A stretch of DNA of 64,000 nt from an uncultured Lentisphaerales bacterium (GCA_943788985.1 CALSSJ010000044.1:11845-75844); one strand, 5' to 3'. Positions 11,966-37,649 are shown, counted from the first letter of the stretch. A program made the numbers and translations. Notes: generated from the letters alone by a model not told the origin.

Positions 11966-11974
11966 ATTCGCAGC

Positions 11975-12262
11975 ATACCGCCCCACTGATTATGCCGGCG
12001 AGACGCTCGCAGTCCCAGCAGATGAGCGGGCGACGACGTCTAGCCAGGGCTGTTGGTTGCGGGGTTGCCCCCGGCGGGACAATAATAGGGATCTACGATT
12101 TCGAAGCCTGCAGCTATAAGTAGACCGGCGTAATGCCGCCAAACTTGAGCGTGGCCAAGAGCTCCTAGAGGACGTGGGGGAGGTCTGCTGGCGGTACGTG
12201 GAACAACGAGGCGTTGGCAAAGACGCCGTCGAAATGCGCGGGCGGTAGGCCCTAAGCTCGAC
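11975..12262 (-). pseudogene. C-terminal relic of a class I SAM-dependent methyltransferase
   Basis: The minus-strand frame reads LPPAHFDGVFANASLFHVPPADLPHVL*ELLATLKFGGITPVYL*..., continuing after a frame change as GFEIVDPYYCPAGGNP. It has in-frame TAG stops, and the SAM-binding N-terminus is absent. Confidence 0.45.
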
Positions 12263-12268
12263 AGGCTG

Positions 12269-13252: not shown

Positions 13253-13350
13253 GTAAAATCCTCAAGAAGTCCCTGTAGTAGCTGATATTTCCGTTTGGTG
13301 ACCTAGCTTACCCCCGAACGTCGGATGCACCACAGCGGGGAAGGGCTGAT

Positions 13351-14502: not shown

Positions 14503-14527
14503 CACAGCATCCCAATGAGGCCCTTGT

Positions 14528-15553: not shown

Positions 15554-16143
15554 CCTTTTCTAAAGTATGCCTCCTTGGCCTTGCCCTTTTCGCCGTGCTG
15601 TTCATTATTTTCGGACTCACCTTGCCCAGGGAGTACTCCGTGGAGCGAGAGATAACCGTCACTGCGCCCAAACATACAGTGCAGGACTTGGTAAGCGATC
15701 TGGCCCGTTGGCCGGAGTGGACCCCATGGCAGGAGGCAGACCCGACGTTGAAGGTGACCACCAGTGAACAGACCCGGGGCGTAGGCGCAACCCAGAGCTG
15801 GAAGGGCGAGAAAGGTGCGGGTCGGCTTGAGATCACGGCAGACAATGATGACGGCATCGCCTATGAAACGTGGTTTGACAATGGAAAACTTGCTTGCAAG
15901 TCCACTATTTCTTACAAGGTTGCGGACTCCGCAACCGTGGTGATCTGGCGATTGCACGGTGTGTCGGACCTCCCGGTCGTGGGTGGCTACCTCTCGGCAG
16001 CCGTGGACGGGATGGTCGGGCCGATGTTTGAGCACGGCCTTGGCAAACTCAAGGCATTGGCCGAGGAGCCAACCGCCGGCCCCGCTGCGGCTGGAGAGAC
16101 CGCTGCCCCGGAGCCCGCTGCCAGCGAGAACAACAGTCCATGA
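15550..16143 (+). CDS. Membrane-anchored SRPBCC (START/polyketide-cyclase-like) family protein
   Basis: ATGA overlap with the upstream gene. N-terminal TM, then [13 protein letters not shown] and a beta-rich core typical of SRPBCC. Pro/Ala-rich tail. Confidence 0.6.
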
Positions 16144-17069
16144 GCAAGTTTGCGGGGATCGCACAGAGCGCTTGCATGCAGCGCTTGCTTGAGCAGGCCG
16201 TGCAAATCAGCAAGCTTCCTCGGCCGGTCCTGATTCGCGGTGAACGCGGAGCCGGCAAGGAGCTGCTAGCGCGCTTTCTGCACGACTGCAGCGCTCGCGC
16301 CCAAGCTCCGTTCGTGGCCGTGAACTGCGCGGCTTTTACAGATGAACTGATGGATGCCGAGTTGTTTGGCCATGAGGCTGGCGGCTTTACCGGAGCGACA
16401 GATACGCGTCTGGGAAAGCTGGAGCTCGCCCACAGCGGATCTCTTTTTCTCGATGAGATCGGCAACATGTCCCCACGCCTGCAGGACCGGATCCTACGGG
16501 TCATCGAGTACCAGTCGTTCCAGCGCGTCCGAGGAAACCAGACCGTTCAGGTAGATGTTCGAATTATTTCTGCGACGAACGCAGATCTCGAGTCTCTGAT
16601 GCATGATGGCCTGTTTCGACCAGACCTTTACGACCGGCTCACCTTTGCCGAGCTGTACCTACCCGCCCTGCGCACGAGGCGCTCGGACATCCCGCATTTG
16701 GTCGTAGACTTTGTTCAGGCATTACATCGCGAGATTCCCAACCTCCCACCACGCACATTCACGCGGGAGACTATGGAGGCGTTAATGAGCTATCATTGGC
16801 CTGGAAACATCCGTGAGCTGAAGAATGTCGTCGAGAGACTGTTTGTCTCCGGCAGCTCCGAGAAGATTGTACCGCCCGATCTCCCTTCCGAGATCGCCGG
16901 TGCCCCGCCAATCGTCGGCGACGGTTTCCACCAACAGGTCGAAGCATTAAGACGCGAGCTGATCCTGCGCGCGCTTCGCCAAACGAATGGAAACCAGCGC
17001 GCCGCAGCAGCTGCGCTGGACATGTCCTACCACCAGTTTCGGCACTACTATCGGAAGTATCAAAGCTGA
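16140..17069 (+). CDS. Sigma-54-dependent transcriptional activator, PspF-like (AAA+ plus HTH only, no sensory domain)
   Basis: Walker [15 protein letters not shown] (a GAFTGA variant), Walker [31 protein letters not shown], and a C-terminal Fis-type HTH ([12 protein letters not shown]). It begins directly with the AAA+ core. Confidence 0.88.
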
Positions 17070-17084
17070 CCCGGCCAAGCGCGA

Positions 17085-17535
17085 TCAATGAGCCATCAGA
17101 ATCTCTGCGAGTTCGTCAACATCTGATGTTTGATACAGCTGCTGACGGAGCGAATTATTGCGCATCAGCCAACTGATTCTGGCCACGACCTGCAGGTACA
17201 GCGCAGGCGGGCGGACAGGTGCCGCAATCAAGAATACAAAATGCACGCGGGCGTTGTCAGGGGCGAGAAAGTCAATTCCAACACGGCTGCGCCCCCACAC
17301 AGAGACACAGATCACTCAGCCCCACAGGCCTCGCATGGGGAATGGCAACGCCCATCCCTAAGCCGGTGCTGTCTTCTTCCTCCCGCTGCAACACAGCCTC
17401 GAGAAAGTCCGCTGGCACAGCTAATAATGGGGACTGGGCCAGCGGTTGAAACAGCTCTCGAATTGCGTCGGCCGGTGTCTCGGCGGCTAGCTCAAGAACG
17501 CGCTCACGAGCAATATATTCGGCGATGTTACGCAC
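17085..17535 (-). pseudogene. Second PTS EIIA type-2 (PtsN-like) gene, frameshifted near 17316-17330
   Basis: ORF 17272..17535 ends ...GMGVAIPHARPVGLSDLCLCV. ORF 17085..17315 continues in the +1 frame as ICVSVWGRSRVGIDFLAPDNARVHFVFLIAAP. Together they make a complete EIIA-2 domain. Confidence 0.7.
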
Positions 17536-17562
17536 GTGCCGACAAAGTCGCTCCCATCGCTG

Positions 17563-19850
17563 CTACTGAAACAGCTCCATGTATGGAACCACAGTCAGAT
17601 AGACCGCACAGCCGACAGCGGCCAGAGCTGCAAACCGAAGTCAGCGTATACAGAATACCAGGGGCAACATCGTCACCAGATGCCAAGTCCTCGGACGCTG
17701 TTGTTGGTTCTGCCTCATCGTCAGTGGTTGCCTTCGTCTTCCCGGCTGGCTGTTTCAGGCGAAGCGTCTTTTCCTTCTTCTTGGCAGCCCGCCTTGTGGT
17801 ACGCTGTGCTTCCTCTTCGGCTGGTGCAGCTTCCGGAGCCGCGACTGGATCACCCGAAGGTTTGCCTTGCGGTGGCTTAATCTTCAGTGTGGAACGAGAA
17901 GCTGCACGCTCGGGTGCGGCGGATTCAACTTGTGTAGGTGCCTTGATCTTAAGCGTGGAGACTTGATCCTCTCCCGCAGCAGGACGGCTGGGGGGGGGAA
18001 TCGCATCGCTATCCTGTGTCGGTGTCTCACCGTCTACAGCGGGTGCCTTGATCTTAAGCGTGGGACGCTTCTTCGACTTGGCTGTCGGAAGTCCGGGCTC
18101 AGAGGCCTCTGTGCTTGGCGTCTTAATATCTGCACGGGTCAGCCGTGCGGTTGGAGTCTCGCCTACCTGCGCTGCTGGCCCCTTAACCTTGAGTGTGCGC
18201 CGCTGCGCACCTTCACCAGCGCCAACGGCGGGAGGTGGCTGTTGAACGGTCCCTGTTTGGCTGACCTGCTGCGGCCCAGGAGACGGACGCAGACGAATAG
18301 TCTGACTTGCAGAGAGAATTCCGGCAAGCTGCTTCTTCTTTTCCTTGATCACCTTAAGGTGAACGGTCTCGGTATCCAGTGTGTCTTCCGCAGACGAAGG
18401 TCGGCGCTCGTCACCTGGCCTGATATGCAGGACGCCAGCTCCCCCTTCTCCATCTCTGGCAGCCATGGGATCGCTAATTCCAGGTACGGTAGTACCTGGC
18501 CGCGGCACGCGCTTGAGCCGAGCGGTTGCCTGATCGCGCGATGATGCGGCCGGCGATGCTACGCCGGGCGCTGTCGCGGGGCGGCCGGGGACGATGGGCT
18601 TGGCACGCAACGTGGAAGTGGCGGTTGGGTCGACCGGACGTTGGGACCTGGGACGTGCCCGAATGCTGGCGGTATCGGTGCCAATCGCACGACGCGAAAT
18701 ACTGGTAGATGTATCGGTCAAGCCAGGACGCGCGGCGGAGGGCTGCGGGCCAGAACCGCCACCTCGGGTGGGGGCTGACTTTACTCGGGCGCGGATGGCT
18801 GCGGTCTCGTCGGTCGAGTTTTCGACGCGCGTACTTGGTCCGGAGGCGAGGGCCGGATCGTTCGCACTAGCTCCTGGAGGCGGCGCAGATTCGCTGTCTT
18901 CGGTGGCAAACTCATTCGCTTGCATTGCTGGGGCGATCTGCGTGGCCAGCCGACGTTTGGCGCGCAGTGCACGGGTGCTATCGGTCGAAACGGCACTTGG
19001 GGCGACAGGGCGCCGACGAATGCCTTGCGTGGTATCTGAAGGTGTAGTGGCACCTGCCTCGTCTGTGGCGGCGCTGTCGACGGTCGCAGCTTCCCCATCA
19101 ATACTTCCGACTCTGCGGCGACGGCGAATGCTCTTGCTGCTGTCGCGATCTTTCTTCTGGAGAGCGACAGTGCCATCAGAAACGAGGCCACGTGGCGGTG
19201 GTACTAATTCGCTGTCTTCGGTCGGCGCATCTGCCCTTGGGCCGGTTGCGAATTGCCATCGTCGTATCGCTAATGGCAGGGGTACCCGCACCCGGTTTAC
19301 GACGCATCGACTTGCTGGTGTCCCGCACGCCCTTCTTCTGGACGGGCGACGTTCCGTCGCCCTTGCGCCGCAACATGGTGGTCGAATCAGTGGGGGCCAT
19401 CTGCGGCGACGGAGCCTGACGGGGCCGCAGATGTGCGGTCGTGTCACTCCACGCGCGCCGCTGGTCCTGGATCGTCCTGGGTCGTATTTCCGGGCTTGGT
19501 CGAAAGCCCTGGCCGAACGCCGAGTGGGCGGGTTGGTGTCCCGTGGGCTGCTGGCTGCTGACAGAAACGCGCGGCTTTGGCATGGCTGGAGCCTGACTAT
19601 TCGCAGAGACCGCCCGAATGTTTGCAGTCTCGATCTCTCTCCGGTTTCCTTCACAGGTCCACCTTCGGCCGAGCGCCGGGTGGAGTGGGTGAATGCTCCT
19701 GAGAACTTACCGTAGCTGCATGGCTGCGCGGCCCGGCCTTGGGCGCGCCAATCGGCTGGGGTCTTGTCCTCTCCGTCAGCAGGCAGGTTCGGTAGCCTGT
19801 CCAGGCACACGCAGGCTGAGCTTCTTCCGGAGGGGGGATTGGGTCGTCAT
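17563..19850 (-). pseudogene. Long low-complexity (Pro/Ala/Thr/Arg/Ser-rich) repeat protein with a C-terminal TM anchor; reading frame broken several times
   Basis: The 760-aa ORF 17528..19810 carries the reiterated motif TLKIKAP / TLKVKGP / TLKIKPP / TLRLKQP / TIRLRP. The best N-terminus, MTTQSPLRKKLSLRVPG (ATG 19850), and an internal QKKGVRDTSKSMRR repeat lie in other frames. The last 30 codons read as a TM helix (FAALAAVGCAVYLTVVPYMELFQ*, stop 17563-17565) only after a shift near 17632-17640. Confidence 0.45.
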
Positions 19851-19957
19851 TTGCCACTGTGATACCTCTTGATCGGTCTCGTTTCCACCGTCCAAACGCG
19901 GCAGGCACAACTCATGCCCTACCATAACGCGACGAACATGATTTGTAAACCCAACGA

Positions 19958-21353
19958 TCAGCCAAGGAAGCCTAAGTTGCGCTGGCTGAAGTTTCCTAGG
20001 TTTGGAAGCACGGTATCGATATCGGAATCGCTTACGCCAAACCATTTTGCCAAGGTGGCAGCGTATTGATCCACACTCGTGGTCGGCAGCCAGCGACCGC
20101 GACCGGTATCATGGGGACTGCTCTGCAGGTCAATATCCGGGAATTGCCCGTATACTTGTGCGCCGTCTACAGCACCGCCCAAGACAATATGGTGCCCGCC
20201 CCAGCCATGATCTGAGCCGCGACCATTGGAAATGAAAGTGCGGCCAAAGTCCGAGGCAGTAAAGGTGGTCACATTATTGGATACGCCGAGGGATTCCATC
20301 GTATCTTGGAAGGCGGTCAGCGCGCCACTGAGTCCGCCCAGCAATCCTGCGTGTGCCCCGAGCTGGTCGCCGTGAGTATCGAATCCGCCTGTGGCGCAGA
20401 AGAAGATCTGCCGCCGCATCCCCAATGCCTCGCGTTGCTCGATCACGCGGGGCTGCGGAGCGCAACTGCTGGCCAAGACCGGAGTTTGGAAAATTCTCAA
20501 AGTCCGTGGCCCCTTCCATGGCCACATTGAACAGCCTCTGAGGTCTCGATCGCGGTGTTATTCACATCGGAAAAGGTGCGTTCGAGCAGATTGTCGTGGG
20601 TACGGTCGAACATCCCCTTTACCGTTTCAAACTTGGTCTTGTCATCGGTACGCCAGCTCGTGCGTAGTCGAAAGTCAGATCGCCTGTCCCCCTGAGACTG
20701 GCACGGGGAGAACCGATTTCCTCCTGTCTGAAAAAAGTTATTGCCAGACATGGACAGGTTCATGGAAATCGTGCTGTCGTTATGAACGGAATGCAGGAGA
20801 TCGGCGATACGGCCACCCCAACCGGATGAATGGTAGTGCGCCGGGGCTGTGACGGACACTTGTCTGCCACAGAACTTGCTGATCATTATGGGAGAACAGC
20901 TGTGGCGGCAGTGCCGAGGAACCATTGCGGAAGTCATCCAATGTCACGGGGCGCAAGCAGGGTGCCGAGATTCGCCACCATGGCGGCATCACCACGATTC
21001 ACCAGACCGGCCATGCCCGCCATCGCCGGATGCAGGCCATAAAGCCTGCCTGCCGCATCAGGTGAGTTCAAGAGTTGCAGCGCGTCGAGCGGCAAGGTCA
21101 GATTCTGACGCGCCGCGGCGTAGATGGCGTGCTGGCTGGCATCGGCGGGGAATCAGCATGTTCGCGGAGTCGTTTCCTCCGAAAAGAAAGACACATACCA
21201 GCGCCTTGTAGTCTGTAGGATCGCTATTTGCCGCGGCAGCGTTGACCTGCCGCAAGTTAAAAAGGGTATGCGCGAGGCTGCTGGTACCAACGGCGGTACA
21301 GCAGCACCAAACCGGAGAAAATCGCGACGGGTAATTTGGTCCATACTCATCAC
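19958..21353 (-). pseudogene. DUF1501 family (sulfatase-fold) protein with Tat signal, fragmented into at least 5 frames
   Basis: Pieces in order: MMSMDQITRRDFLRFGAA (Tat signal); DYKALVCVFLFGGNDSANMLIP; PPQLFSHNDQQ..WQT; GWGGRIADLL; and a 189-aa C-terminal piece with GGFDTHGDQ, TASDFGRT and GSDHGWGGHH. Each piece lies in a different frame. Confidence 0.8.
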
Positions 21354-21359
21354 TCTCTC

Positions 21360-23037
21360 CTACTTCTGGATGACATATTCGGGCGAACTGTAGATGAGCT
21401 GCAGAACAGCAATAACTTGGTCGTCAGTATCTTGTGAGATTGCGGCCAGCGTCTGGGCAATTTCGGCCTGCATCTCGGGGGACATATCGCCGTCCATCAG
21501 CAGGACGTTGAGGGAATCGACCAGTATGGCCGGGGCAGCGGCGAGGGCTTCGTACCCGGAATAGTCCAAATACACGCTCGGGTGCATCCAGTGCGTACCC
21601 AAGCCATAGGCAATTCCCTGATGAAAGTAGTTCGCGGTATCGATCGCGGTCAGATCGTTGATCATTTGGAACTCGGGCGCGAAGACCCGTTGCTCTCGGG
21701 CCTCGCCGACGGGGATGTAATCAGGTTCAAAGAAGTTAAATACGCTCTTGGCGTAGAACGGTGCTTGGCCCATGACATCGGCCAGTGACGTATCGAATGT
21801 GTATCGCCCAAAGGTGGGAGGATTCCACGTCGGTGCCGCACGAAAGGCCCGCACCAGTTGCGTCAGACGAACGATAGGCTCACGAACCTTACCAGCCGTG
21901 TCCTTGGCAGCCTGTTCAAGAGAACGTGCCTCTGGATCCAGCAGGATGGCTCGAACCACGGCGGAGAGATCGCCGCGCACGCCATGCCCATTGTCGTCAA
22001 ACTGCTGCGCAACCCGATAGATATAGCCCGGAGAGGGATTGCTGGTCACCAGGCGCTGGATCATGCGCCGGGCGATGAACGGGCCAACATTCGGGTGTTG
22101 AAAGACGCTATCGATGACGCTCTGGCAATCCTGATAGGCCGTCTGCCCAGCCGGCACAACCTGCCCCCTCAGAAGCACTTTCTCGCTGGTATCGTGATAC
22201 TCCTCAAACGCCATCAGTGGCGCGAGTTCCTGCCGTGGATCAGAAGATGTCCAATAAAAGTTGGTCGAGCCGCTGAAGGTCCAGCCAGTCAGAGCCTTAG
22301 CAAAGTTTAGAATCTCGTCCTGACTATAAGTCTCGAGCGGCACCCCCGCTCTCATCCACTTTCAGACTACCATCTGGATTGAGCGCGTTCAGGCCGATCG
22401 AAAACAGCTGCATAATTTCCCGGGCGTAGTTCTCATCGGGTAGTGTGCCGGTGACCGGATTGGCCTTGGCATTGCGCAGCATGGTGAGGTAGATGCCCAT
22501 CATAGGATTGAGCGTCACCTCTTCGAGAATCTGCCGATAATTCCCGAAGGCATTGCGGACTAGGATGTCGTAGTAATTGGTCACACCACGCGTCCGGCGA
22601 CTCAATGCCGACGAATGATCCGATATCACGACTATCTCGCTCAGGGCAAACGCCACACGCTGGCGCAGTTGATCCTGCGAGTCGATTGCAATCGTCCACC
22701 ACGTAAAGGCGCGCTCTCGAGCATTATCGACGCCGATAAAACCTTGGTCGGTCAACTCGCGGGTCTTGTCCAGCACCGGCAAATGCAAAGTAGCCGGCAT
22801 GGCGATCTGGCTGTTCAGCCAGCCCTCGAATCCCAGTGTCTGTACCTCGGAAATCAGCGCTGGTGTCGCACCGAACGTCGCCTGATTAAGAAACCGGGCC
22901 AACTCCGCATCCGAGGGCCGTTCCCGAAGGGCTATACTCCGGAACCGGCGGAACGGGAAAGTCTGCATCATCAGCATCTGGCGGAACGGAGGCGATCGGA
23001 TCAGTGGCCGGTTCGACAGGCACAAACTCCGGCACAT
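21360..23037 (-). pseudogene. DUF1800 domain (C-terminal part of the giant PA14 protein), split near 22330-22350
   Basis: ORF 22324..23037 has ARFLNQATFGATPALISEV...GWLNSQI and ORF 21360..22355 supplies the rest of the domain. The upstream frame continues without a start or RBS from the PA14 fragment 22886..23173 (…PDADDADFPVPPV / ERPSDAELARFLNQATFG). Confidence 0.75.
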
Positions 23038-24663
23038 ACAGCTCCGGCATTGTAATGCCTTCAGGGATATAGGGCGAGAGAAATGCCCCGGTCACGATTT
23101 CAAACGTATCGCGGTCGGGTCGAAGCCATTGTACGGTCACGTGGTCATCGCCCCAGCCTTCCTTGTGCAGCACCTCTACATAGTACCCGCTGTCCTTGAG
23201 CAGGTAGGCTGGCGCGGAATATTGGGACGGATATTTATCCCACTCGCCAATATCGGTGTTTCCCCGGCACGTGCGCTGTGATCACATGGTATGCAACGGC
23301 TGTATCCGACATCTGTTGCCAAAAATCCCACGCTGTCGCCAGCAGCATTTAACATGAAGTACGCATCGTCATCGCCCTGCAATTCGGAAACGGTAGAGGG
23401 CCGTCCTCAGGGACATGTAGATAGCCGCGCAGACGCTGCCCGTATTGATCCCCGCGATTCACCTCGGTTTCCAACGCCCCCGATCAGATCGCGCGAAGTC
23501 GGCTCGTGTGGGTAGCTAGGATCGCCAAGCAACGAGTACAATCGGTAGTGCCCCCACCTGCTCCCAGACCTCATGCAGAATAGCACCTGTTTCCTTCGGC
23601 CAGTGCATCGCCTATGGACACGTTCACATTCGCGGTCCTGACATTTAAGCCATCATTTGCGCTGAGGCGCAGGACGTACGATCCCGGCTGTGGAAATCTC
23701 ACAACAGTCCTGCGGATCAGTCGAGTCTGCGAACTCCACCACTGCTGGCCCAGAGACCTGAGACCATTCAATCGCCAGAGCCAACGGGCCTGCATACAGG
23801 TCGATCACCCAGCCCTCAAGCTGGCGCACATGATCGGGGCCCAATGGGCGTCGATGTCGCGCCCCCCCACGACCAGCAACTCATTCTCGCGCGCTGGCGC
23901 ATCATAAAAATGGCGCGAGAAACGTCCCGTCGATCACGACCGGCTCTTCGTCTGCACCCTGGCGTTGCCAGGCCACGGCCAGATGCTCGCTGCTCCAGCC
24001 TTGTTTGTGCAGCACATCGAGATAGATCTTCTGACCGGCACTCAAACTGAGGACCTCGCTGTACTGGGAATCCCGCTGCGTCCAATTCTGATAGCTCACC
24101 CAGCCTTCGACGCTGGCCCACCGGCTGGGCGCTGGCCGGTGTCCCGTCCAGCCCCAAGCTCAGGCTGCTATGGTCATCGCTGGCGATAAAGAACTGGTAG
24201 TCTCCGTCGGCTGGGACAATGAAGATAACCCCGGTAGCGGGCCACGTAGTGCTCCGTAAAACCTCAGAGGACCTTCCAGGGCGGGCATGAGTTCTGAGAA
24301 CGTCGGTTCGAGCGGATAGCCCTCGGCGTTCGCCACGTCCGTCAGGCGCGCACCGTAGGCATCGAGCCAGACCTCACGCAGGATCGAGCCGGCGTTCGGC
24401 CCTAACGGCTCACGAACCAGCACGTCGATCTCGTCTGCGGCTGCATTCATGCCGTCTGTTGCGAACAGCATCAGGGTGTACGTGCCAGGCTCACTGAATG
24501 TCGCCGACGTAGCAGGATAGGCAGGATCCGAGAAGGTCACGCTGCCCGGGCCGGCGGCCTTGCTCCACAGATAGGTCAAGCTCTCTGGTCCCGTCCACCA
24601 TGTCGTACACCGTCCCGAGAAAATCAAGCTGGTTGCGAGGCCAGTACGTGTCCTGATCTTCAC
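22886..24663 (-). pseudogene. PA14 / Ig-like modules 5 and 6 of the giant protein, fragmented by many frameshifts
   Basis: Fragments include GSILREVWLDAYGARL...YPLEPTF; VPADGDYQFFIASDDHSSLSLG; SYQNWTQRDSQYSEVLSLSAGQKIYLDVLHKQGWSSEHLAVAWQ; ILHEVWEQVGG..; GDDDAYFMLNAAGDS; and YYVEVLHKEGWGDDHVTVQW. They follow the same order as the intact modules upstream but sit in alternating frames. Confidence 0.75.
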
Positions 24664-27600
24664 CGGCGATCACCAGAATGTCTTCATTGCGCGTTTGAAC
24701 AGCGGCGAAAGGCTCGAGAAAAGATGCCTGGATGACTTCGCGTTCAAAAAGCGCCGGCCCTTCCCATTGCACGGCAAAGTGATCGTGTCCGGCTGTTTCT
24801 CTGTGGAGGAGCTCGATGTAGTAGCGCTGCCCGGCCTGCAAGGTGACCGGCTCTGACTCCTGAGCGGCCGTGCGAATCTGCCGCACGCTGTTCCAATCAT
24901 CCGTAAAGGCAACCACCGCAGTGTCAGCGGCAGAATCTGTGACGCTCAGTAACAGAGTCGCCTCACGATCGCCGGACACGTAAAAGGTGTACTCGCCGGT
25001 GGCCGGCGGATGCAGGTAGCCTCGCACACGCGTGCCGTAGTGGTAGCCCCCAATGACTCGGCCCCTCAAAGGTACTGAGGTGGTCACTGAACGTTGGCGA
25101 ATCAGGATAGCGCTCGTCTTCTCTACCAAGTCCTCAACCGAGCCACCACGTACGTCCAGCCATACCTCGCGCAGAATGCCACCGACAGCCTGATTCAGCG
25201 GCTCAAGCACGGTCACCATGACCGTGTCACGGTGACTGGCAGCATCACAGGTCACTGTCAGCTCCAGTTCATAAACACCGGGCGCCTGCAAGGTCAACGT
25301 GGTCTCGGGATCGCTTGCAGCCAGAAAACCGGCCCCCGCAGGGCCACTCAGCTGCCGCCACCGGACTGCTGGCTCTCCATCTTGGCCACGTCGAAACTGG
25401 ATTCTGCCAGCCAGCGCCAACTCACTACGTGGGAAATAGATCTCGCGATCTGGTCCGGCGTCTGCGAAGACCTTAATTGCCTCGTCGACAGGCGCGGCGT
25501 CCTCTCTACTCCACGGAGAAAGCATACTACCGGGAACAATAGACAGTGCTGGCGACCATGGCGTGGACCAGGCAACGGCCACATGATCACCACCCCAGCC
25601 CTCTTTGTGCAGGACTTCGACATAATACCGCTCACCAGCCTCCAATTCCACCCAGATAGAAAGTTGCTCTTCGTACCGATCCCAATCTTCGGGAGACGTC
25701 GCCCCCGGGACCTGCGCGATCAATGTTGCCGTCGCGGGATCGTCGCCAGCCCCCAGCAGCAGTTGACACTCGTCATCCCCCGAAATCGCAAACCTATACT
25801 GCCCGCTCACGGGGGCATGCAGATAGCCACGAATCCGCGTCCCGTAGCCGTCGCTCCAATGAACCGGCGTCGCCAAGCGTGGAAGCAGATCACGAAAATA
25901 TGGATTGTCCGGGTAATTCTCGTGATTCAGCAGTAGCTGTACCTCGTTGTACCAGACATCAGTCCACACCTCGCGTAGAATTGAACCGGTATTTGGTGCC
26001 AGTGCGCGGTGCAAACGAACGATGACCTCATCGCTATGCACCACCGCACCTTCGATGCTGGCATCCAGGCGGATTACGTATTCGCCCTCAGCCGGGAGCG
26101 TCAGTGCGGTAGTCTCTCCTGTTTGATCGGCGATCGCTGCCTGAGTCGGCCCATCAATCTGCGTCCACCGAAAGGTCACCAGTTCTGGCTCCACGCTCAT
26201 GGCGAAGACCTGCGCGGTGAGCGTCGTCTCCTGCTGCGGGCAGTACACCTCCTGATCATCACCGGCATATGCCACAGCGACCGGCAATGCCGTGGCGCGC
26301 GGCGCGTCCAAATAGGGCATCAAAAACACGGAATCAATCACCTGGCGTTCGATGTCCGGCCCTTGCCAGCCGACCGTCAGATAGTCGTGTCCACCGCCGT
26401 CCTTGTGAATTGCCCGAATTAGGTAACTCCGACCGGCCTCAAGCTCGATCTCGGCGGAAGCCTGCGAGTCCCGATAGTCCCAATTCCGGTAGCTGGTCCA
26501 GATATTCAGGTGGGCGATCTGCGTCAGACCAGCAGCGTCTTCGCTGTCGCTGAGAAACAGCGCACTATGGTCGTCGCTAGCGATGAAGAAGCGGTAGGTG
26601 CCAGTTGTTGGCGGCACCAGCAGCGCAGTCAATTGCTGCCCGTAGTTATCGGCCCAAGGCTCTGGAGTCTCGAACGACTCAAGCGTGTCCACCACCATCG
26701 GCGCTTGGAGATACGCCTCGCTCGAAAGCAAGTTATCCACCCCGCCGCCGGAAACTCCCAGCCACACTTCACGAGTCACGCCCGTCACGCCCTCAATCAG
26801 ACTCTGCCGGAGAGCAATTTCCACGTTGTCCACCGCCAGGTTGTAGCCGTCCACTGCCGTGACCTGAAATTCATACACTCCAGCGGCTGGCAAGGCCACC
26901 GTCGTCTCAAGCGCGCTAGGGTCTGCGATGTTCGCAACGCCCAGCCCCGACACTTGCCGCCACTCCACCTCGACTTCGGCATCCCAACGACGCTTAAAAT
27001 AGTCTGCCTTCAGCCTGAATGTCTGCCGCGGCAGATAGCCGCTGCTATCCGGCCCGGCTCCAACCGCGAGTTCTACGCGGGGCAACAGCAGGGGCGCTGG
27101 CTGAACTGGTGACAAGTGTGTGCCCCCAATAGCCTGGCGTTCAAACACCCCTTCCAGTTCCCAGGCCACGGACAAACTGTCTCCGCCGCCAGCTTCCTTT
27201 TGCAGCCCTTCGATGTAGTACACTTGGCCAGCCTCCAGGTGGACTGCCACGGAGCGCTGTTCCTGAAATTTATCCCACTCCAGCGCCGCGGTCCAATCGC
27301 TCACAGTGGCGATTAGCACGGCTCCGCTAGGGTGCTCCGAATCAGAAAGATAAAGGGCACACTGGTCATCGCCAGAGACCCAGAACACGTAGTCGCCTGT
27401 GACCGGAGGATGAAGATAGCCATGGACACGCGCTCCATAGCCCCAGCCCCAATTCACTGGGGTTGCGAAGCTGGTGAGCGCATCGCTAAAAGTCGGATTG
27501 TCCGGGTAGGTCGCGTGCTGCACCAGGTCAACAAGCCGCTTCCCCCAGATCCCTGTCCAGACTTCGCGGGTCACGGTTCCGCGCTCAAGCGCATTCGTGC

Positions 27601-28354
27601 CAGTTATGTGGGCTGCGTAGTCCGCAATGTTGGACATCCCGTCAAAATTCACGTCCCGCTCTCTGTCATGGGAGCCCGGATCGAGTCCCTTAGCCAGCTC
27701 GTAGGCGTCATGCATGCCGTCACTGTCCGCGTCATCAAACATCGGATTTTTGCCCGTAACATACAACTCGTCGACACAAACCGGCCCGGCAAACGTCAGC
27801 TCACGAAGGCTCTGCGCGGCGCCGCTCAACGGCAGATCTGCGGCGAGCAGCCGTTTGTTGCCATACAAATCCCAGCGTTCCCGCAAAAAATCGATGCGGG
27901 CCGTAATCCGCAGCCAAATCTTCGAATGCCCGGCCGCGTCCACCGGAATCCGGCACTCCGTCAGCAGCCACGCGCTGTTCGCCCAAACCGCCACCACGCC
28001 AGCATCTGCACCGTCTGCCACGAAACCGATCGCCGCGGTGTCCGCAATCAAGAACGGCGTTTCCGCCACGCCGGGCCGGTAGTAGGCATCCACAAACACC
28101 GTCGCGGACTCATTCTCGCGAAAGGGAATTGTCGCCTCACCACTAGCCTCAACCACCAGGCTCTGACTGTGCTTCGCCTGATCGGCTGAGGTGATGGACA
28201 CCCCACCCGCAACCGTCCAGCCTAGCTCCGTCAGGTCACTGTCGACCGCGTAGTTCTCCCACGTTTCGAACCGGACTCGCTCCGGTATCTTGTTCTGCGC
28301 CTCGGCATAGAAGGCGGCAAAAGTCATGGCCAGTAGTAATATCCTTGCTGTCAC
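24491..28354 (-). CDS. Giant secreted PA14-repeat protein, intact N-terminal 1287 codons (signal peptide, jelly-roll-like N-domain, Ca-binding-type DxDxDG segment, then 4 Ig-like + PA14 modules)
   Basis: Signal MTARILLLAMTFAAFYAEAQ, then DADSDGMHDAYE..DVNFDGMSNIADY. Four units of about 260 aa each have (T/L)REVW...YPDNP...YG.R..GYLHPP.(T/S)G.Y.F..SGDD...L.LS...LEAG..YYIE.L.KE..GGD...V.W. The ORF ends only because of a frame change near 24590. Confidence 0.85.
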   Translation of the reverse strand: MTARILLLAMTFAAFYAEAQNKIPERVRFETWENYAVDSDLTELGWTVAGGVSITSADQAKHSQSLVVEASGEATIPFRENESATVFVDAYYRPGVAETPFLIADTAAIGFVADGADAGVVAVWANSAWLLTECRIPVDAAGHSKIWLRITARIDFLRERWDLYGNKRLLAADLPLSGAAQSLRELTFAGPVCVDELYVTGKNPMFDDADSDGMHDAYELAKGLDPGSHDRERDVNFDGMSNIADYAAHITGTNALERGTVTREVWTGIWGKRLVDLVQHATYPDNPTFSDALTSFATPVNWGWGYGARVHGYLHPPVTGDYVFWVSGDDQCALYLSDSEHPSGAVLIATVSDWTAALEWDKFQEQRSVAVHLEAGQVYYIEGLQKEAGGGDSLSVAWELEGVFERQAIGGTHLSPVQPAPLLLPRVELAVGAGPDSSGYLPRQTFRLKADYFKRRWDAEVEVEWRQVSGLGVANIADPSALETTVALPAAGVYEFQVTAVDGYNLAVDNVEIALRQSLIEGVTGVTREVWLGVSGGGVDNLLSSEAYLQAPMVVDTLESFETPEPWADNYGQQLTALLVPPTTGTYRFFIASDDHSALFLSDSEDAAGLTQIAHLNIWTSYRNWDYRDSQASAEIELEAGRSYLIRAIHKDGGGHDYLTVGWQGPDIERQVIDSVFLMPYLDAPRATALPVAVAYAGDDQEVYCPQQETTLTAQVFAMSVEPELVTFRWTQIDGPTQAAIADQTGETTALTLPAEGEYVIRLDASIEGAVVHSDEVIVRLHRALAPNTGSILREVWTDVWYNEVQLLLNHENYPDNPYFRDLLPRLATPVHWSDGYGTRIRGYLHAPVSGQYRFAISGDDECQLLLGAGDDPATATLIAQVPGATSPEDWDRYEEQLSIWVELEAGERYYVEVLHKEGWGGDHVAVAWSTPWSPALSIVPGSMLSPWSREDAAPVDEAIKVFADAGPDREIYFPRSELALAGRIQFRRGQDGEPAVRWRQLSGPAGAGFLAASDPETTLTLQAPGVYELELTVTCDAASHRDTVMVTVLEPLNQAVGGILREVWLDVRGGSVEDLVEKTSAILIRQRSVTTSVPLRGRVIGGYHYGTRVRGYLHPPATGEYTFYVSGDREATLLLSVTDSAADTAVVAFTDDWNSVRQIRTAAQESEPVTLQAGQRYYIELLHRETAGHDHFAVQWEGPALFEREVIQASFLEPFAAVQTRNEDILVIAGEDQDTYWPRNQLDFLGTVYDMVDGTRELDLSVEQGRRPGQRDLLGSCLSCYVGDIQ

Positions 28355-28559
28355 GTCTCATCGCTCTCTGGGTATAGCCTTCTCGGTAACAAAACGATCT
28401 TCGATTAACCTACCGTAGGTAGTTTGTGGCGTTAGGACAATCCCGATTTCCCATAATAACCCGGAAATATCTGCGATGGTTGCCACTTGCCTGTTGCAGG
28501 GTGGCTGCCTGAGGGTAGATTTCAATCTACTCGTTCCTGTCGAACCAGCCGTAGGGGCT

Positions 28560-29339
28560 ATGGAGCAGCTTTCCTTTGATGTTACGTTGTTTTCTGCTGA
28601 CAGTGCGAATCTGTCCGCTCACTTGTCGCGAGGAAAGCTCCGACAAGGCGTACTTGCTTGGGTAGCAGCGCAAGGAGCCGACGCGATTGGCCTTGACGTT
28701 GTCACCAGAAACCAGCGGTTTCGTGCTCCCATCGGCGCGTTTTGGAGCAGCCCCGCTCAACTGGCGGCAAAGTCCATGCTTGTGGAAATCAAGACCTCGC
28801 GCGCAGCTTGCTGGCCGGACCATGTTCGTTCTGAGAACCTGCTCCCAGAGCTCCGGAGCCTCAAGCGAGACCGCCAGACTTTGCTGGCAGAGATTCGTGA
28901 TGCCGAGCCACATCTCCGCTGTAGCCAGTCGCTCTTCGAAGAGTTTGCAGAGTGGAATTATGAGAAATCTGACAATCCCGCCTATCAGCAACTGAGCGAA
29001 GATATCCGGCGCGTACAGACTGCCATCTATCGCGGAACCCGCTTCGAGCGGCTCGCTGCCGGGACGATGGCCCACAAACTCTACCTAGCCGTGCCTGAAG
29101 GCGCTGTACACCCGGACGAGTTGGCCGACGGCTGGGGCCTACTTTGGGTACACGAAGATCAAAGCGTGACCTGCGTCGCTGATGCCACACACCACACCTG
29201 CCCCCAGGATGATGTAAACCGCTTCGCAGTTGCAATTGCGAAGTCCGCAAAAGCCTGCGTGCTGTTTGCCACTGGCATCGACGAGGCGCACGCATGCCGG
29301 ATTGTGCAACCACCGCGCCGAAGACGAAAACCCCAATGA
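28560..29339 (+). CDS. Hypothetical protein with PD-(D/E)xK / MmcB-like nuclease motifs and a long helical insertion
   Basis: IGLDVV...MLVEIKTSRA (D...ExK) and later KLYLAVPEGAVHPDELADGWGLLWV resemble the MmcB-family core. About 100 aa of charged helical sequence lies between them. The start at ATG 28560 is a guess. Confidence 0.4.
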   Translation: MEQLSFDVTLFSADSANLSAHLSRGKLRQGVLAWVAAQGADAIGLDVVTRNQRFRAPIGAFWSSPAQLAAKSMLVEIKTSRAACWPDHVRSENLLPELRSLKRDRQTLLAEIRDAEPHLRCSQSLFEEFAEWNYEKSDNPAYQQLSEDIRRVQTAIYRGTRFERLAAGTMAHKLYLAVPEGAVHPDELADGWGLLWVHEDQSVTCVADATHHTCPQDDVNRFAVAIAKSAKACVLFATGIDEAHACRIVQPPRRRRKPQ

Positions 29340-30316
29340 GCAGAAAACGGGGAAAGGCACTACGGACACGCCTCACAAGGTCACTGCTCAAAAACTGTTT
29401 CCCCCTACTGAGCCGCGCGCTAGCCCTCTGCCCCAGGCTACTGGCCCACGGCCTCGCCAGGCTCGCGTCTTGGATCATCTGGTCCCTTCCCAATGAGCGC
29501 AAACTTCTGCGCACCAATCTGACCATCGCCTTTCCTAAAAAAACATCCAGCCAACGTGCCCGCATCGCTCGGGCCTCGGTCAGTCACCTCATCTACGCCT
29601 CTTTTGCCTTCGCTCGTGCAGCACGAGATCCTAGCCGCATCCTTGAACTCATGACCTACGACGAAGAAGAACTTGCCGCCTTCCAAAATGCCGGTGGAGC
29701 CATCCTCATCAGCCCTCATCTAGGCCACTGGGAAGTGGGACATCTCGCCGTGAACCTACTGGGGATGCAGACCGTCACCGTCTCCCGAAAGCATCGCTAC
29801 GACGAGGTCGAAAACTTTCTTAAAACCGCGCGCACCTGCACCGGTGCCCAAATGGTCTATCAGGCTGGGGCCGTGCGCGGCATGCTCAAAGGGCTGCGGG
29901 CTGGCCACAAAATATTCATCCTGGTCGACCAGAATATTCGGCCACGAGACGGTGGTGTCTATGCCCCCTTCTTCGGCCTGCCCGCAACCGTCAGCCGGGC
30001 CCCCGCCTCCCTCGCCGCCAAGGCCGCCGGCGGCGTCTGGCTTGGAGCCTGCCTGCTTGAACCTGATGGCAAGTTTCGCCTCACTTGCCGGAAAATTGAC
30101 CTACTAGGTTCCGAAAGCGATGAAGCCGCTATGGCACAGGTAAATTCAGCTACAGAAGCCATTGTCCGAGAGTTTCCGGAACAATACCTGTGGTGGTATA
30201 AGCGCTGGCTCTTCATACCTGACGAAGCCGACACAGCGGACTATCCCTACTACGCACGGACGATCCGCAACTCAGCTGGTTCCATTACGTCAACCCAACG
30301 GACGATGAAGCCTTGA
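29336..30316 (+). CDS. Lipid A biosynthesis (Kdo)2-lipid IVA acyltransferase family (LpxL/HtrB-like)
   Basis: N-terminal TM, then ILISPHLGHWEVG (HX4E acyltransferase motif), ILVDQN, FFGLPATVSRAPASLA and FPEQYLWWYKRW, all typical of the family. Confidence 0.75.
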   Translation: MSRKRGKALRTRLTRSLLKNCFPLLSRALALCPRLLAHGLARLASWIIWSLPNERKLLRTNLTIAFPKKTSSQRARIARASVSHLIYASFAFARAARDPSRILELMTYDEEELAAFQNAGGAILISPHLGHWEVGHLAVNLLGMQTVTVSRKHRYDEVENFLKTARTCTGAQMVYQAGAVRGMLKGLRAGHKIFILVDQNIRPRDGGVYAPFFGLPATVSRAPASLAAKAAGGVWLGACLLEPDGKFRLTCRKIDLLGSESDEAAMAQVNSATEAIVREFPEQYLWWYKRWLFIPDEADTADYPYYARTIRNSAGSITSTQRTMKP

Positions 30317-30810
30317 TTTTCCTGCGTGCCGTTTGCCAGAGCGTCGCCTAGGGACTCGAATACCTGCACAACCTAAAACAGCCCGTGATCGACGGCAATG
30401 TCCGGCCCCGGCACATGCGCATCACTCCCGATGGCGAAATCAAGCTCATCAGCTTTGGCTCTGCTTACTTCGCCTGGAGCGAACCGCCACACCGCGAGCC
30501 GGACGAATACGCCGCACCAGAACAGTTGCTCTACATGGAGGGCAGGAGGATCAGCCCTGATCTTGAGACAGACCGCTACTCCCTGGCATCCGCGATGAAC
30601 TACGGATTCTGCGGCCAGCATCGCTTTCTTAGTGTGCAGAACACCACCGATTCAGCCGCCCGCCTCAAGAGCGCAATCTTTGCTCGCAAAATACCGCTTC
30701 GCAAGAAAAACGAACGACATGCTGGATGCCAGCCCCGTAAGGCGACCATCCTTCTAAGATCTACATCTCGTCTTGGCAGATCCCTATGGCGAAGACGCAT
30801 CGGAGCCTGA
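30317..30810 (+). pseudogene. Relic of a Hanks-type Ser/Thr protein kinase (C-lobe only, catalytic motifs degenerate, in-frame TAG)
   Basis: The frame reads ...CQSVA*GLEYLHNLKQPVIDGNVRPRHMRITPDGEIKLISFGSAY...YAAPEQLL...DRYSLASAM. The subdomain order is VIb (HRD replaced by IDG), VII (DFG is now SFG), VIII (APE) and IX. The stop is at 30349-30351 and no N-lobe is present. Confidence 0.45.
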
Positions 30811-30888
30811 AGAACCACCAGCGGCTGAATGTCCCCCCATACTCCCGCAGGCTCCCCCGGCAGCTGAAGAGTAGCACTGACTGCCATC

Positions 30889-31413
30889 TCACAGGCCCGC
30901 CACAGCCAGCGCCTGCCCCACCAGCTTGCTTGCTTGCTCTGCTGTAATCACCGCACCGTCGGCTAAATCACTGACCACCTTCAAGACAGACAGCGGCAGC
31001 TGACCACACGCAGCGGCAATCGCTCCGGTCTCCATCTCCACCAACGTCTCTACTCCCTCAGTTTGCGGAGTTCGCACCGTCGTCAACGGCCGTGCGGGCA
31101 TTCCCGGCCACGGACGCAGCGGGTACAGCTGTCCGTCCCACGCAACTGCCTCAGCCGTGAACACATCCCCGAACTGCACCTCTGGCGTCCCGCCGCAAAT
31201 CCCGACGTTGCGAAGTTCGCAAATCTCGGAAAACTCGCGGAGCAAAGCACCTGTGGCCGCGCTCGCGCGCTCAGGCCCGACCCCCGTGATCGCCACGATG
31301 GCGTTATCCTTGCGATAGATGCGAAAGCCCAGCGCACTTGGCACGCGCCGTGCCTGCAGCCGCGTCAATATCGGCTGCGCCTCACAGCGTAAGGCACACA
31401 ACCAGGCAATCAC
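30889..31413 (-). CDS. Nucleoside phosphorylase superfamily protein (MTA/SAH nucleosidase- or futalosine hydrolase-like)
   Basis: 174 aa with AITGVGPERASAATGALL, and VEMETGAIAAAC matches the PNP_UDP_1 fold signature. The specific subfamily cannot be assigned by eye. Confidence 0.55.
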   Translation of the reverse strand: MIAWLCALRCEAQPILTRLQARRVPSALGFRIYRKDNAIVAITGVGPERASAATGALLREFSEICELRNVGICGGTPEVQFGDVFTAEAVAWDGQLYPLRPWPGMPARPLTTVRTPQTEGVETLVEMETGAIAAACGQLPLSVLKVVSDLADGAVITAEQASKLVGQALAVAGL

Positions 31414-31421
31414 CGCTCAGC

Positions 31422-32078
31422 CTACGCGCCCCAGCGCGCCCGATAGTCCGCGATCGCGCGCAGAATCTCCGCCGAGACCAGCCCATGCTCCGTGACATGT
31501 GCCACGATCTCGGAAAGAGTGACGATCGCAAAGGCAGGCATGTCGTAGGTAGTCGCCAGTTCATCCAGCGCATTGCGCTCACCGGTCCCCTTCTCCTCCC
31601 GATCCACGGATACGATCAGACCCGCGAGCGTAACGTCCGCCGCGCTGCGCAGCAGCGGTACGGTCTCACGCACAGACGTCCCAGCCGTCACCACATCTTC
31701 GACAATCACAACGCGCTCGCCATCGCCGAAAGGATGCCCGACAAAGACTCCCTTCTCGCCGTGATCCTTCGCTTCCTTGCGGTTGAATGTGAAGTTCACC
31801 GTATGATCATGCTCCGCAGCGAGCGCCATAGACGCGGTCACAACCAGCGGCACCCCTTTGTACGCGGGGCCAAAAAGCGTGTCGTACTCCCGTCCCAGCC
31901 GATCAGCCAGCGCCGCCGCGTAGAACGAGCCCAACTTCGCAATCTGCGGCCCGGTCGCGTATTGCCCGGTATTAATGAAGTATGGGGTTTTCCGCCCGCT
32001 CTTTGTCGTGAAATCCCCGAACCGAAGCCCGCCAGAATCTAGCATAAAGGAAATAAAATTTTGCTTATAGTTCGTCAT
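31422..32078 (-). CDS. pyrE: Orotate phosphoribosyltransferase
   Basis: Shows GDFTTKSGRKTPYFINTG and the PRPP-binding loop VVIVEDVVTAGTS. 218 aa. Confidence 0.92.
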   Translation of the reverse strand: MTNYKQNFISFMLDSGGLRFGDFTTKSGRKTPYFINTGQYATGPQIAKLGSFYAAALADRLGREYDTLFGPAYKGVPLVVTASMALAAEHDHTVNFTFNRKEAKDHGEKGVFVGHPFGDGERVVIVEDVVTAGTSVRETVPLLRSAADVTLAGLIVSVDREEKGTGERNALDELATTYDMPAFAIVTLSEIVAHVTEHGLVSAEILRAIADYRARWGA

Positions 32079-33556
32079 TCGTCAGCAAACTCCCAAGCAT
32101 GACGTTCGCGCAGAGCTGGCACAGCGTTACCGCGCCCGGTGGCCTCCAGACGCTCTACATATCGTTTCAGATGGCCACTCGCATGCAACGGGCCACCTTC
32201 CGCCATGACCTCCCACATCGGGTCTGAGCTACTCGGGCTGCTGGCCATCATGTCATCATGCCAATCCAGTAGCCGGGAAGCGCCCTCACGACAGATCTCC
32301 GGATGCGCCTCCGCCAAGTCAAACTGCTCATGCGGATCGCTCTCAAGATTGTACAGCATCTCCTTCGGGAACAGGTGATAGCCGTCGTGATACGTACGCA
32401 TGTACAGCCACGGCCCAAAGCGCACGCTTCGCTGGCAAACATGGGCACATTGGCTGATCACCAGCTGGTCGCGCCCAGTCGCCTCGCCGTCTTGTATCGC
32501 AGCAGCAAAACTCTCGCCATCCCAGCGCGGGCGCGCCGCCACACCGGTCAGTTCTGCCAGTGTCGGGGCCAGGTCCACATTATAATGCAACCCCTCATTC
32601 ACGCAGGCCTCTTCCATGCCGGGCCAGTGTACAATCAGCGGCACTCGGCAGGTGATCGAGTCAGCCGTACCGTGCTCGCCGTAGATCCCAAGCTCGCCCT
32701 GGTTCTCACCATGATCAGCCGTCACGATCACCACCACATCATCCAGCCCGACTCCCTGGGCCTCCAGCCCTGCCAGGATCCGACCGACATGCTCGTCTGC
32801 CCAGTTCACACCGCAGTCATAGCCATCGATCATCCGCCGCAAATCTTCCATTGTCTGCAACTCACCCGGCTGCCTCGGAAACGCAGGGAGCTCATCTCCG
32901 TTGTACATGTTAATGTCCAACGCAGTGTGCGGTCCTGCCATCTTCTTATGGCCCTCAAGCACATCTTCCGTCAGCCATTCCGGGAGCGGGTCGTCCGCAA
33001 AAGGATTCCCTAACTCTTCTGGCGTTCGGTAGGGCGTATGCGGGTCCCAGTAGTTCACGTAGAGAAACCAGTCATCATCTGCCGCATTGTCTGCGATCCA
33101 CTTGAGCACAACTGGAGTGACTTCCTCTGCAGATTCCTGCCCGCCCTTTCCCGTGTTGTGCACTTCATTGAAGCCAGCGTAGAACGTCCAGCAGGTGTGA
33201 CGTTCGGGAAAAGGGCTAACCAGCGTGGTTTTCATGCCCAGTTTACGAAAGATGGTAGGCAACGCATCCTCGTACAGCTCCGAGCGAAAGTTACGCCCCG
33301 GCCCTTCGAGGCGCATATCGGCCGCAGTGCCACCGTGCCCGACCACGCCAGTATGAATCCCAAACCGGCCACTCATCAAGGCTGTACGAGAGGGCAAGCA
33401 GGGTGCATCTGAGCAGTAATAGTTCGTAAATCGAACTGCCCTCTCGGCAATTCGATCAATGTTCGGTGAGGTATTTCGATGGTAGCCGTAGCACCCGAGA
33501 TGATCGGGCCGAAGGCTATCAATGTCACACAGAAGTACGCGCATCTGGATCCTCAT
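32075..33556 (-). CDS. Sulfatase family protein (Cys-type, no obvious signal peptide)
   Basis: Shows DSLRPDHLGCYG, the formylglycine motif PCLPSRTALMSGR, and the TADHGE metal/active-site region. It overlaps the pyrE start by 4 nt. Confidence 0.85.
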   Translation of the reverse strand: MRIQMRVLLCDIDSLRPDHLGCYGYHRNTSPNIDRIAERAVRFTNYYCSDAPCLPSRTALMSGRFGIHTGVVGHGGTAADMRLEGPGRNFRSELYEDALPTIFRKLGMKTTLVSPFPERHTCWTFYAGFNEVHNTGKGGQESAEEVTPVVLKWIADNAADDDWFLYVNYWDPHTPYRTPEELGNPFADDPLPEWLTEDVLEGHKKMAGPHTALDINMYNGDELPAFPRQPGELQTMEDLRRMIDGYDCGVNWADEHVGRILAGLEAQGVGLDDVVVIVTADHGENQGELGIYGEHGTADSITCRVPLIVHWPGMEEACVNEGLHYNVDLAPTLAELTGVAARPRWDGESFAAAIQDGEATGRDQLVISQCAHVCQRSVRFGPWLYMRTYHDGYHLFPKEMLYNLESDPHEQFDLAEAHPEICREGASRLLDWHDDMMASSPSSSDPMWEVMAEGGPLHASGHLKRYVERLEATGRGNAVPALRERHAWEFADE

Positions 33557-33583
33557 ACCCTTCAGGCCGCAAATGGAGGCTCT

Positions 33584-36804: not shown

Positions 36805-36866
36805 TCACGAATTCTCCGCATTTAAAACTACAGAACTGCGGTCTTACCATACTCCCAGCGCCCCAA

Positions 36867-37604: not shown

Positions 37605-37649
37605 TCCCGTGCCCGGCCCGCCGCGTCACCTCCAACGGAGTTCGCCCGA

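Follow-up and report, generated by a model that had tools for sequence, protein, structure and literature searches.

Does a run of broken reading frames on an assembled contig reflect a gene in decay, two neighbouring genes, or a single gene that is obscured by errors in its record? This question is raised by a 64,000-nucleotide stretch of DNA from an uncultured Lentisphaerales bacterium (GCA_943788985.1, CALSSJ010000044.1:11845-75844), which in its full length is called the window here. On its minus strand, from 28354 to 21360, a large gene for PA14 modules and a C-terminal DUF1800 domain can be read as a single unit only through frame changes, and it is followed by a DUF1501 gene. In a preliminary description, made from the sequence alone, the protein of about 2330 amino acids (aa) that results from such a reading was taken as an inferred ancestral form. 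The comparison with other assemblies reported below gives a probability of roughly 0.85 that the large gene is real, single and intact in nature, and that its frame breaks are single-base insertion errors private to this record.

In the window, the minus-strand open reading frame (ORF) 24491-28354 starts with GTG and comprises 1287 codons. Pfam identified four PA14 and three K319L-like PKD stretches in it, in agreement with the PA14/Ig repeats that had been described for this ORF. On its 3' side, no frame stays open beyond ~250 codons over ~3 kb, and PKD fragments were found by Pfam in this broken stretch. The DUF1800 domain was matched in two pieces, at 22327-23091 (profile positions 1-171, 135.7 bits) and at 21363-22361 (profile positions 173-418, 163.2 bits), and the stop codon of the large gene lies at 21360-21362. 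The two further units and the full DUF1800 domain that had been followed downstream by frame switching could be recovered, which gives six PA14 units, five PKD units and a DUF1800 domain of 305 bits. Two features had not been mentioned before. The DUF1501 gene is also broken, over at least six frames, with a twin-arginine start at ~21350 and a recognizable C-terminal part at 19961-20557. In addition, the reading of 24 codons in the 1287-aa ORF is scrambled between insertions at 25047 (+1) and 25120-25121 (+2) that compensate each other, so that 25047-25121 reads ...KTSAILIRQRSVTTSVPLRGRVIGGYHYG in the window and ...DERYPDSPTFSDHLSTFEGPSHWGYHYG in the true sequence. The stop at 24491 is a false one, created by an insertion at 24590. 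Owing to the error patch, the two genes appear as ~15 ORF fragments, and in the public annotation of the same contig fragments are entered as separate proteins.

Near-identical DNA is present in many marine and estuarine metagenomes. Logan DNA contigs from four runs of four studies cover 19.5-28.5 kb at >99% identity, and in all of them the same single bases are missing. Six ENA contigs (L001-L006), which come from different samples and assemblers and were retrieved via the intact neighbouring gene at 28476-29339, are 99.7% identical to the window over 18435-39341. In a multiple alignment with these contigs, 43 bases were private to the window. All of them are insertions (deletions, 0), and ~6 private substitutions were observed over the same 21 kb. 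A total of 41 private bases fall into one 5.9-kb patch, at one per 144 bp, compared with 2 in 25122-39341 and 3 in 1-19233. The latter, at 4146, 17292 and 17632, are single window bases that are skipped by all three metagenome assemblies compared there. Sharply delimited, the patch extends over three unrelated genes, namely a 760-aa ORF, the DUF1501 gene and 60% of the large gene at its 3' end. The private bases are mostly located in homopolymers: 36/43 lie in runs of at least 2 (background 43%) and 25/43 in runs of at least 3 (background 14%). The extra bases are also missing from four metatranscriptome assemblies that are >99% identical to the window, and in total they were absent from 14/14 other assemblies examined (X1, X3, X4, X8, L001-L006, X21-X24).

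When the 20 private bases were dropped from 21360-28354, the large gene shortened from 6995 to 6975 nt and became a single ORF of 2324 codons, with 3 aa differences compared to L001. Likewise, dropping 10 private bases from the DUF1501 region gave the same 460-aa protein as in L001. All other assemblies are colinear with the window here, which also settles the earlier concern about a mis-assembly of the repeat-rich segment. A tandem-repeat search of 19-29 kb found none, and the six units are mutually only 33-43% identical as protein; therefore, a repeat-driven mis-assembly is unlikely. The frame breaks of the window are base-calling or assembly errors with the spectrum of homopolymer over-calling in a poorly polished segment, and neither gene decay nor mis-assembly, and the 'ancestral' status given to the large protein does not hold, as the gene is alive. 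The same type of error was seen in priA (37650-39840, minus strand), with private single-base insertions at 37617 and 38804. The insertion at 38804 cuts the window's priA into 346 + 411 aa, whereas other contigs encode one PriA of 729 aa.

In L001, L002, L003 and L005, the large protein was called as a single gene of 2315 aa, followed by a DUF1501 gene (460 aa in L001, L003 and L005; 409 aa in L002). The 2315-aa sequence, or variants at least 90% identical to it, is recorded from Logan, ENA, JGI/IMG and GEM. One NCBI member, HAR66133.1, is partial and is annotated as 'hypothetical protein [Lentisphaeria bacterium]'; it is the single basis of this organism label. A word-indexed protein search with the C-terminal DUF1800 piece had given no near-identical match (best 52%), which suggested that the gene is absent elsewhere; this was ruled out by the contigs found via the intact neighbour gene. 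A Logan contig (L011) encodes an intact large protein of 2324 aa that is 63% identical end to end, and its DUF1501 protein is 76% identical. Two 40% identical orthologues, from a scan of genome contigs in which the window's own species did not come up, are single ORFs with six PA14 stretches and a C-terminal DUF1800 domain; they encode 2611 aa in a metagenome-assembled genome (MAG) of Limisphaerales (L008) and 2666 aa in a MAG of an uncultured Verrucomicrobiota (L007). In a further ENA contig (L012, 'contig_146'), an equal content was called as four pieces with DUF1501 present, and the homology runs on from one call to the next with changes of frame, which fits indel errors of the kind seen in the window. 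Thus, the proposal of one gene from PA14 to DUF1800 is supported by the uninterrupted genes in L001, L002, L003, L005, L011, L007 and L008, with six PA14 and five PKD modules ahead of DUF1800 and DUF1501 directly behind, and none of the orthologues has a stop and restart between the PA14 part and DUF1800. L004, L006 and L012, which are 'contig_'-named ENA assemblies, carry private indels of their own, and the gene or its orthologue is annotated there as 2-4 proteins (for example 1936 + 359 aa, or 709 + 1019 + 173 + 450 aa). As similar splits occur in such long-read-style assemblies, frameshifted 'pseudogenes' at this locus should not be taken for biology.

Metatranscriptome contigs tile both genes. 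One of them (22269-23233) spans the PA14/DUF1800 junction and another one (21054-21495) the DUF1800/DUF1501 junction; their weight is reduced by a low depth and possible DNA carry-over.

Three other accounts of the broken frames were considered. A decay of both the PA14-DUF1800 gene and the DUF1501 gene in the window's strain, with the 2324-aa form as the ancestral state, would fit the many frame breaks in the two genes and the public entry for this 100,659-bp contig, in which pieces of 1278, 237 and 331 aa are annotated. Decay is not expected to leave 41 insertions with 0 deletions, almost no substitutions and a homopolymer bias, within a sharp-bordered patch over three unrelated genes, and to strike the housekeeping gene priA in the same way. 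Together with the absence of the extra bases from all other DNA and RNA assemblies of this 99.7% identical population, this makes decay very unlikely. It keeps a small residual probability, as a genuinely frameshift-ridden strain is excluded indirectly, by the error signature only. Most DUF1800 proteins are stand-alone proteins of 450-580 aa, and separate DUF1800 proteins of 359-450 aa were called in L004 and L012, as would be expected if mis-assembly or read-through had joined an ordinary DUF1800 gene (~550 aa) to one for a PA14/PKD surface protein. However, these split calls come from the 'contig_'-named assemblies with private indels, and in L012 the DUF1800 homology begins 216 nt upstream of the called start, frame-shifted relative to the preceding Ig domain. 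The ORF is continuous in the four near-identical assemblies as well as in the three more distant orthologues, and the RNA contig over the PA14/DUF1800 junction also argues for one gene, so that a two-gene origin is highly improbable. Programmed frameshifting or phase variation at homopolymer tracts would explain why the insertions are located in short homopolymer runs, but there are 41 sites over three genes, the runs are just 2-5 nt long, and no tract-length variation was observed at these sites in any other assembly or RNA contig; the probability of this account is close to nil.

The locus at 28354-21360 encodes one secreted multi-PA14 DUF1800 protein, the parts of which are listed in Table 1. 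Its size is 2324 codons when counted from the GTG and 2315 aa when counted from an internal ATG, the called start, close to the ~2330 aa of the preliminary description. Judged from the sequence, the GTG at 28354 is most likely the true start, because it is the first start past an in-frame TGA, because the n-region and h-region of a Sec signal are gained with it, and because it is equal to the start of the 63% identical orthologue in L011 (2324 aa). Towards its end, the N-terminal region contains acidic, Ca-binding-like DxDxDG motifs, as read from the sequence (DDADSDGMHDAYE...DVNFDGMSNIADY). At Pfam cut-offs of 24 bits for PA14 (PF07691), 27 for K319L-like PKD (PF22352), 26.1 for DUF1800 (PF08811) and 27 for DUF1501 (PF07394), all six PA14 units singly pass the gathering score and five PKD units are above the cut-off. 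The DUF1800 domain of the intact protein scores 305.1 bits over profile positions 1-418 of 419. In the window, unit 4 carries private insertions at 25120-25121, 25047 and 24590. The true sequence of the junction between PA14 and DUF1800 is ...PDADDADFPVPPVPEYSPSGTASDAELARFLNQATFG; the junction given as an example in the preliminary description is real, but was slightly garbled by the insertion at 22915.

Table 1. Position and support of the parts of the large gene, its partner gene and the insertion patch (window coordinates).
Feature	Coordinates	Strand	Basis
Whole gene, PA14 x6 + PKD x5 + DUF1800, secreted, 2324 aa	21360..28354	-	Intact assemblies and corrected ORF
GTG start and predicted Sec-type signal peptide, MTARILLLAMTFAAFYAEA/QNK	28298..28354	-	Read by eye from the sequence
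N-terminal region, ~240 aa	27581..28297	-	No Pfam match at E<=1
Unit 1, PA14 + K319L-like PKD	26804..27580	-	PA14 52.3 bits, PKD 30.2 bits
Unit 2, PA14 + K319L-like PKD	26006..26803	-	PA14 41.1 bits, PKD 45.1 bits
Unit 3, PA14 + K319L-like PKD	25199..26005	-	PA14 29.7 bits, PKD 29.1 bits
Unit 4, PA14 + PKD	24406..25198	-	PA14 35.5 bits, PKD 30.1 bits
Unit 5, PA14 + PKD; 7 private inserted bases	23607..24405	-	PA14 39.7 bits, PKD 28.2 bits
Unit 6, PA14 only; 7 private inserted bases	23078..23606	-	PA14 29.2 bits
Pro/Asp-rich linker between last PA14 and DUF1800; private insertion 22915	22912..23077	-	Sequence
DUF1800 domain, split in the window by insertion 22343	21363..22911	-	Pfam 305 bits
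DUF1501 gene, 460 aa; 10 private inserted bases	19958..21350	-	Pfam and intact contigs
Patch of 41 window-private single-base insertions	19234..25121		Alignments with Logan, ENA and metatranscriptome contigs

The protein is acidic, with a pI of about 4.4 and a mass of about 255 kDa. Neither a lipobox cysteine nor a C-terminal sorting domain could be identified in it, and its C-terminus is the DUF1800 domain. The DD motif is kept in PA14 units 1, 2, 3, 5 and 6, and unit 4 has GDRE instead. When a PA14 module was compared with the PDB, the best match was 6qdi (E 5.5e-4), at very low similarity and with the DD motifs aligned; in lectin-type PA14 domains, Ca2+ and sugar are bound at this DD position.

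The DUF1501 protein matches its family with 121.4 bits over profile positions 2-385 of 390. Its start lies 6 nt (GTG) or 9 nt (ATG, as called in other contigs) from the DUF1800 stop, in line with the short distance noted earlier, and its AGGAG ribosome-binding site overlaps the DUF1800 stop codon. The two genes are tightly coupled, probably at the translational level. The protein starts with MSMDQITRRDFLRFGACTAVGTSSLA, in which TRRDFLRF corresponds to the twin-arginine translocation (Tat) pattern S/T-R-R-x-F-L-K with a subsequent hydrophobic stretch. The RR pair is nearly invariant across 40 homologues, and the Pfam TAT_signal model gave 19.3 bits, under its cut-off of 22.7. In a Foldseek search with a model of DUF1501, the top matches were without exception members of the alkaline-phosphatase superfamily, namely S1 sulfatases, LtaS, MCR-1, YejM and phosphonate monoester hydrolase. 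D60, D321/H323 and D377/H378 are invariant in the 40 homologues and may be metal ligands. A formylglycine motif (C/S-x-P-x-R) was not found in the 460-aa protein, and therefore it is no classical sulfatase.

For the DUF1800 domain, an AF2 model based on a 48-sequence alignment was obtained with a pLDDT of 90.2 and a pTM of 0.93, and it is mostly alpha-helical. Foldseek against 350,542 PDB chains gave no match at E<=0.001, with TM-scores <=0.14, and a sequence search of the PDB with DUF1800 was empty. The invariant polar residues (D, R, E, H, N) include the motif PDENYARE...QLFSIG and a conserved His. In a relaxed Pfam scan, no relation of DUF1800 to PSD1 or PSCyt could be detected. Being confidently modelled and having no solved relative, the domain is a reasonable target for structure determination.

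The pair is conserved at the orthologous loci. DUF1501 is located directly downstream in 5/5 lineages (the window species, L011, L012, L007 and L008), with a gap of 8-9 nt in three of them and an overlap of 17 nt in two (L007 and L008). No neighbours beyond DUF1501 are conserved across these loci, and the functional unit is therefore the two-gene pair. In an exhaustive HMMER search with the C-terminal DUF1800 piece against 1.84 billion cluster representatives, 5304 relatives were identified. The best 150 of these include 8 of at least 2000 aa, all within the nine best-scoring matches, 41 of 1000-2000 aa and 52 of 700-1000 aa, and in every extended relative among them DUF1800 is C-terminal. PA14 was found in 10/12 long representatives that were scanned. 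In the other long representatives, DUF1800 is joined by PKD_4 with a glucuronyl-epimerase (Glce) beta-sandwich, by Calx-beta or by no further family. Some of those with PA14 also have CHRD, He_PIG or Bact_surface_Ig-like, and CHRD-DUF1800 proteins of ~680 aa are common. The PA14-DUF1800 fusion is a recurrent architecture across PVC lineages and is present, unnamed, in public protein collections. A literature search found no paper on PA14 together with DUF1800.

Stand-alone DUF1800/DUF1501 operon pairs (PF08811 and PF07394) have been described as co-transferred with bacterial chitin synthase genes (PMC5122149). The pair studied here has the same two families in the same order, a tight coupling, a twin-arginine DUF1501 and likewise no assigned function; it differs in that DUF1800, typically a protein of 450-580 aa, is the C-terminal quarter of 2324 aa, behind six PA14 and five PKD modules. 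The protein with the giant PA14 array is a variant of this known, functionally uncharacterised pair. In Planctomycetes, Verrucomicrobia and Lentisphaerae, DUF1501 is also found in modules with PSCyt1, PSCyt2 and PSD1 (Kamneva et al. 2012, PMC3542564), and these PSCyt/PSD1 partners sometimes carry the carbohydrate-binding domains Laminin_G_3 or F5_F8_type_C (PMC3542564). A Tat-signal DUF1501, a large secreted partner and the PVC lineage are shared with these modules, whereas here the partner is DUF1800 and the addition is a PA14 array; PSCyt1, PSCyt2 and PSD1 gave no match at E<=1 anywhere in the large protein. CHRD-DUF1800 and single-PA14-DUF1800 proteins (~580-700 aa; P0154, P0157) resemble the large protein in having an N-terminal accessory module and a C-terminal DUF1800, but they have one accessory module and the array here is 1800 aa long. 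Lectin-type PA14 domains are known from the yeast Flo and Epa proteins (GLEYA), from the sugar-binding domain of the Marinomonas ice-binding adhesin and from PA14 inserts of beta-glucosidases. The match to the PA14/GLEYA family and the DD in 5/6 modules suggest a likeness to this group, from which the modules are set apart by their very low similarity to solved structures and by being fused to DUF1800, in place of a glycosidase or the anchor of an adhesin.

Both products could meet in the cell envelope of a marine bacterium, and a glycan-tethered DUF1800/DUF1501 envelope pair is tentatively put forward as one possible function. DUF1501 would then be a putative alkaline-phosphatase-superfamily enzyme with metal-dependent hydrolase or transferase activity, exported in the folded state by Tat, and DUF1800 its putative obligatory partner or second subunit. 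The lectin-type PA14 array may tie the pair to a polymeric glycan substrate by multivalent binding, with the Ig-like modules as spacers between the PA14 modules, in analogy to the carbohydrate-binding modules of polysaccharide-degrading enzymes. The glycan-targeting role that had been suggested for the pair is reasonable, and it is strengthened by the frequent recurrence of PA14-DUF1800. The DD motif in five of the six PA14 modules also speaks for it, and parallels are seen in the carbohydrate-binding domains of some PSCyt/PSD1 partners (PMC3542564) and in the co-transfer of DUF1800/DUF1501 with chitin synthase genes (PMC5122149). At the N-terminus of close DUF1800 relatives, PA14, CHRD, Glce beta-sandwich or Calx-beta modules are found time and again, and the recurrent fusion to PA14, CHRD and the Glce beta-sandwich is a concrete, testable clue to a glycan role.

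Several observations weigh against this functional proposal. The DUF1501 model has medium confidence (pLDDT 69.5), and its fold matches are weak, with a best E of 6.8e-4 (probability 0.98) and TM-scores of 0.2-0.34. Searches of DUF1501 against PDB chains, with the single sequence and with a profile, gave nothing useful by sequence, and a relaxed Pfam scan revealed no relation to Sulfatase, with a hit in 1/40 DUF1501 homologues only, at E 0.099. The DUF1800 fold has no solved relative, and hence its chemistry is unreadable from known structures. A literature search found no experiment on the function of DUF1800 or DUF1501. As proteases, toxins and adhesins contain PA14 domains too, the array could simply be an adhesin or a spacer. 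In the main alternative, of nearly equal probability, the PA14/PKD array would be an adhesin stalk or spacer that holds DUF1800 at a distance from the cell or binds to a protein or particle surface, and DUF1800 itself may be catalytic or a non-enzymatic binding module. Giant bacterial adhesins typically contain PA14 and PKD repeats, the invariant polar residues of DUF1800 could form a separate active site, and other N-terminal additions include the plain Ig-like Bact_surface_Ig-like, He_PIG and I-set. On the other hand, the large protein is missing an anchoring signal, as neither a lipobox nor a C-terminal sorting domain is present. At 5/5 loci it is strictly coupled to an enzyme-like partner that is exported by Tat, which favours an enzymatic role of the pair. 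A wider form of the glycan-tethered proposal, in which PA14-array DUF1800 and Tat-exported DUF1501 proteins would form widespread, unrecognised envelope complexes in marine and soil PVC bacteria, DUF1800 would be an obligatory subunit with a new fold, and the enzyme would act on a sulfated or phosphorylated polysaccharide, is doubtful. If true, it would open a first way to the function of two large DUF families that are abundant in PVC bacteria and for which no function is reported in the literature found.

The neighbourhood of the pair contains further genes. Downstream of DUF1501, a 760-aa ORF (17528-19857, minus strand) has no Pfam match and is 760 aa long in other contigs too. Its 5' part contains 11 private inserted bases, which garble the window translation in places although the ORF stays open; it is not conserved beside the pair at orthologous loci. 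Divergent from the large gene, at 28476-30316 (plus strand), lie a 287-aa gene without a Pfam match and a Lip_A_acyltrans gene (lipid A lauroyl-acyltransferase-like). The Lip_A_acyltrans gene and the ~270-aa/287-aa gene are syntenic in L011 (63%), but not in the 40% identical loci. A classical sulfatase (PF00884; 32075-33556, minus strand; 489 aa in other contigs) is located ~4 kb from the large gene, and two genes of 665 and 395 aa without a Pfam match come after it. Elsewhere in the window, tRNA-Asn(GTT) and tRNA-Pro(CGG) were identified at 8335-8584 (minus strand). The depth of metagenome contigs is 5- to 10-fold higher at 7.8-9.1 kb, as expected where a conserved tRNA attracts contigs of other organisms. 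Finally, overlapping ORFs at 50425-54466 (plus strand) encode FGase, a MATCAP-like carboxypeptidase (PF08014, 300 bits) and an ATP-grasp protein of the glutathione-synthetase type.

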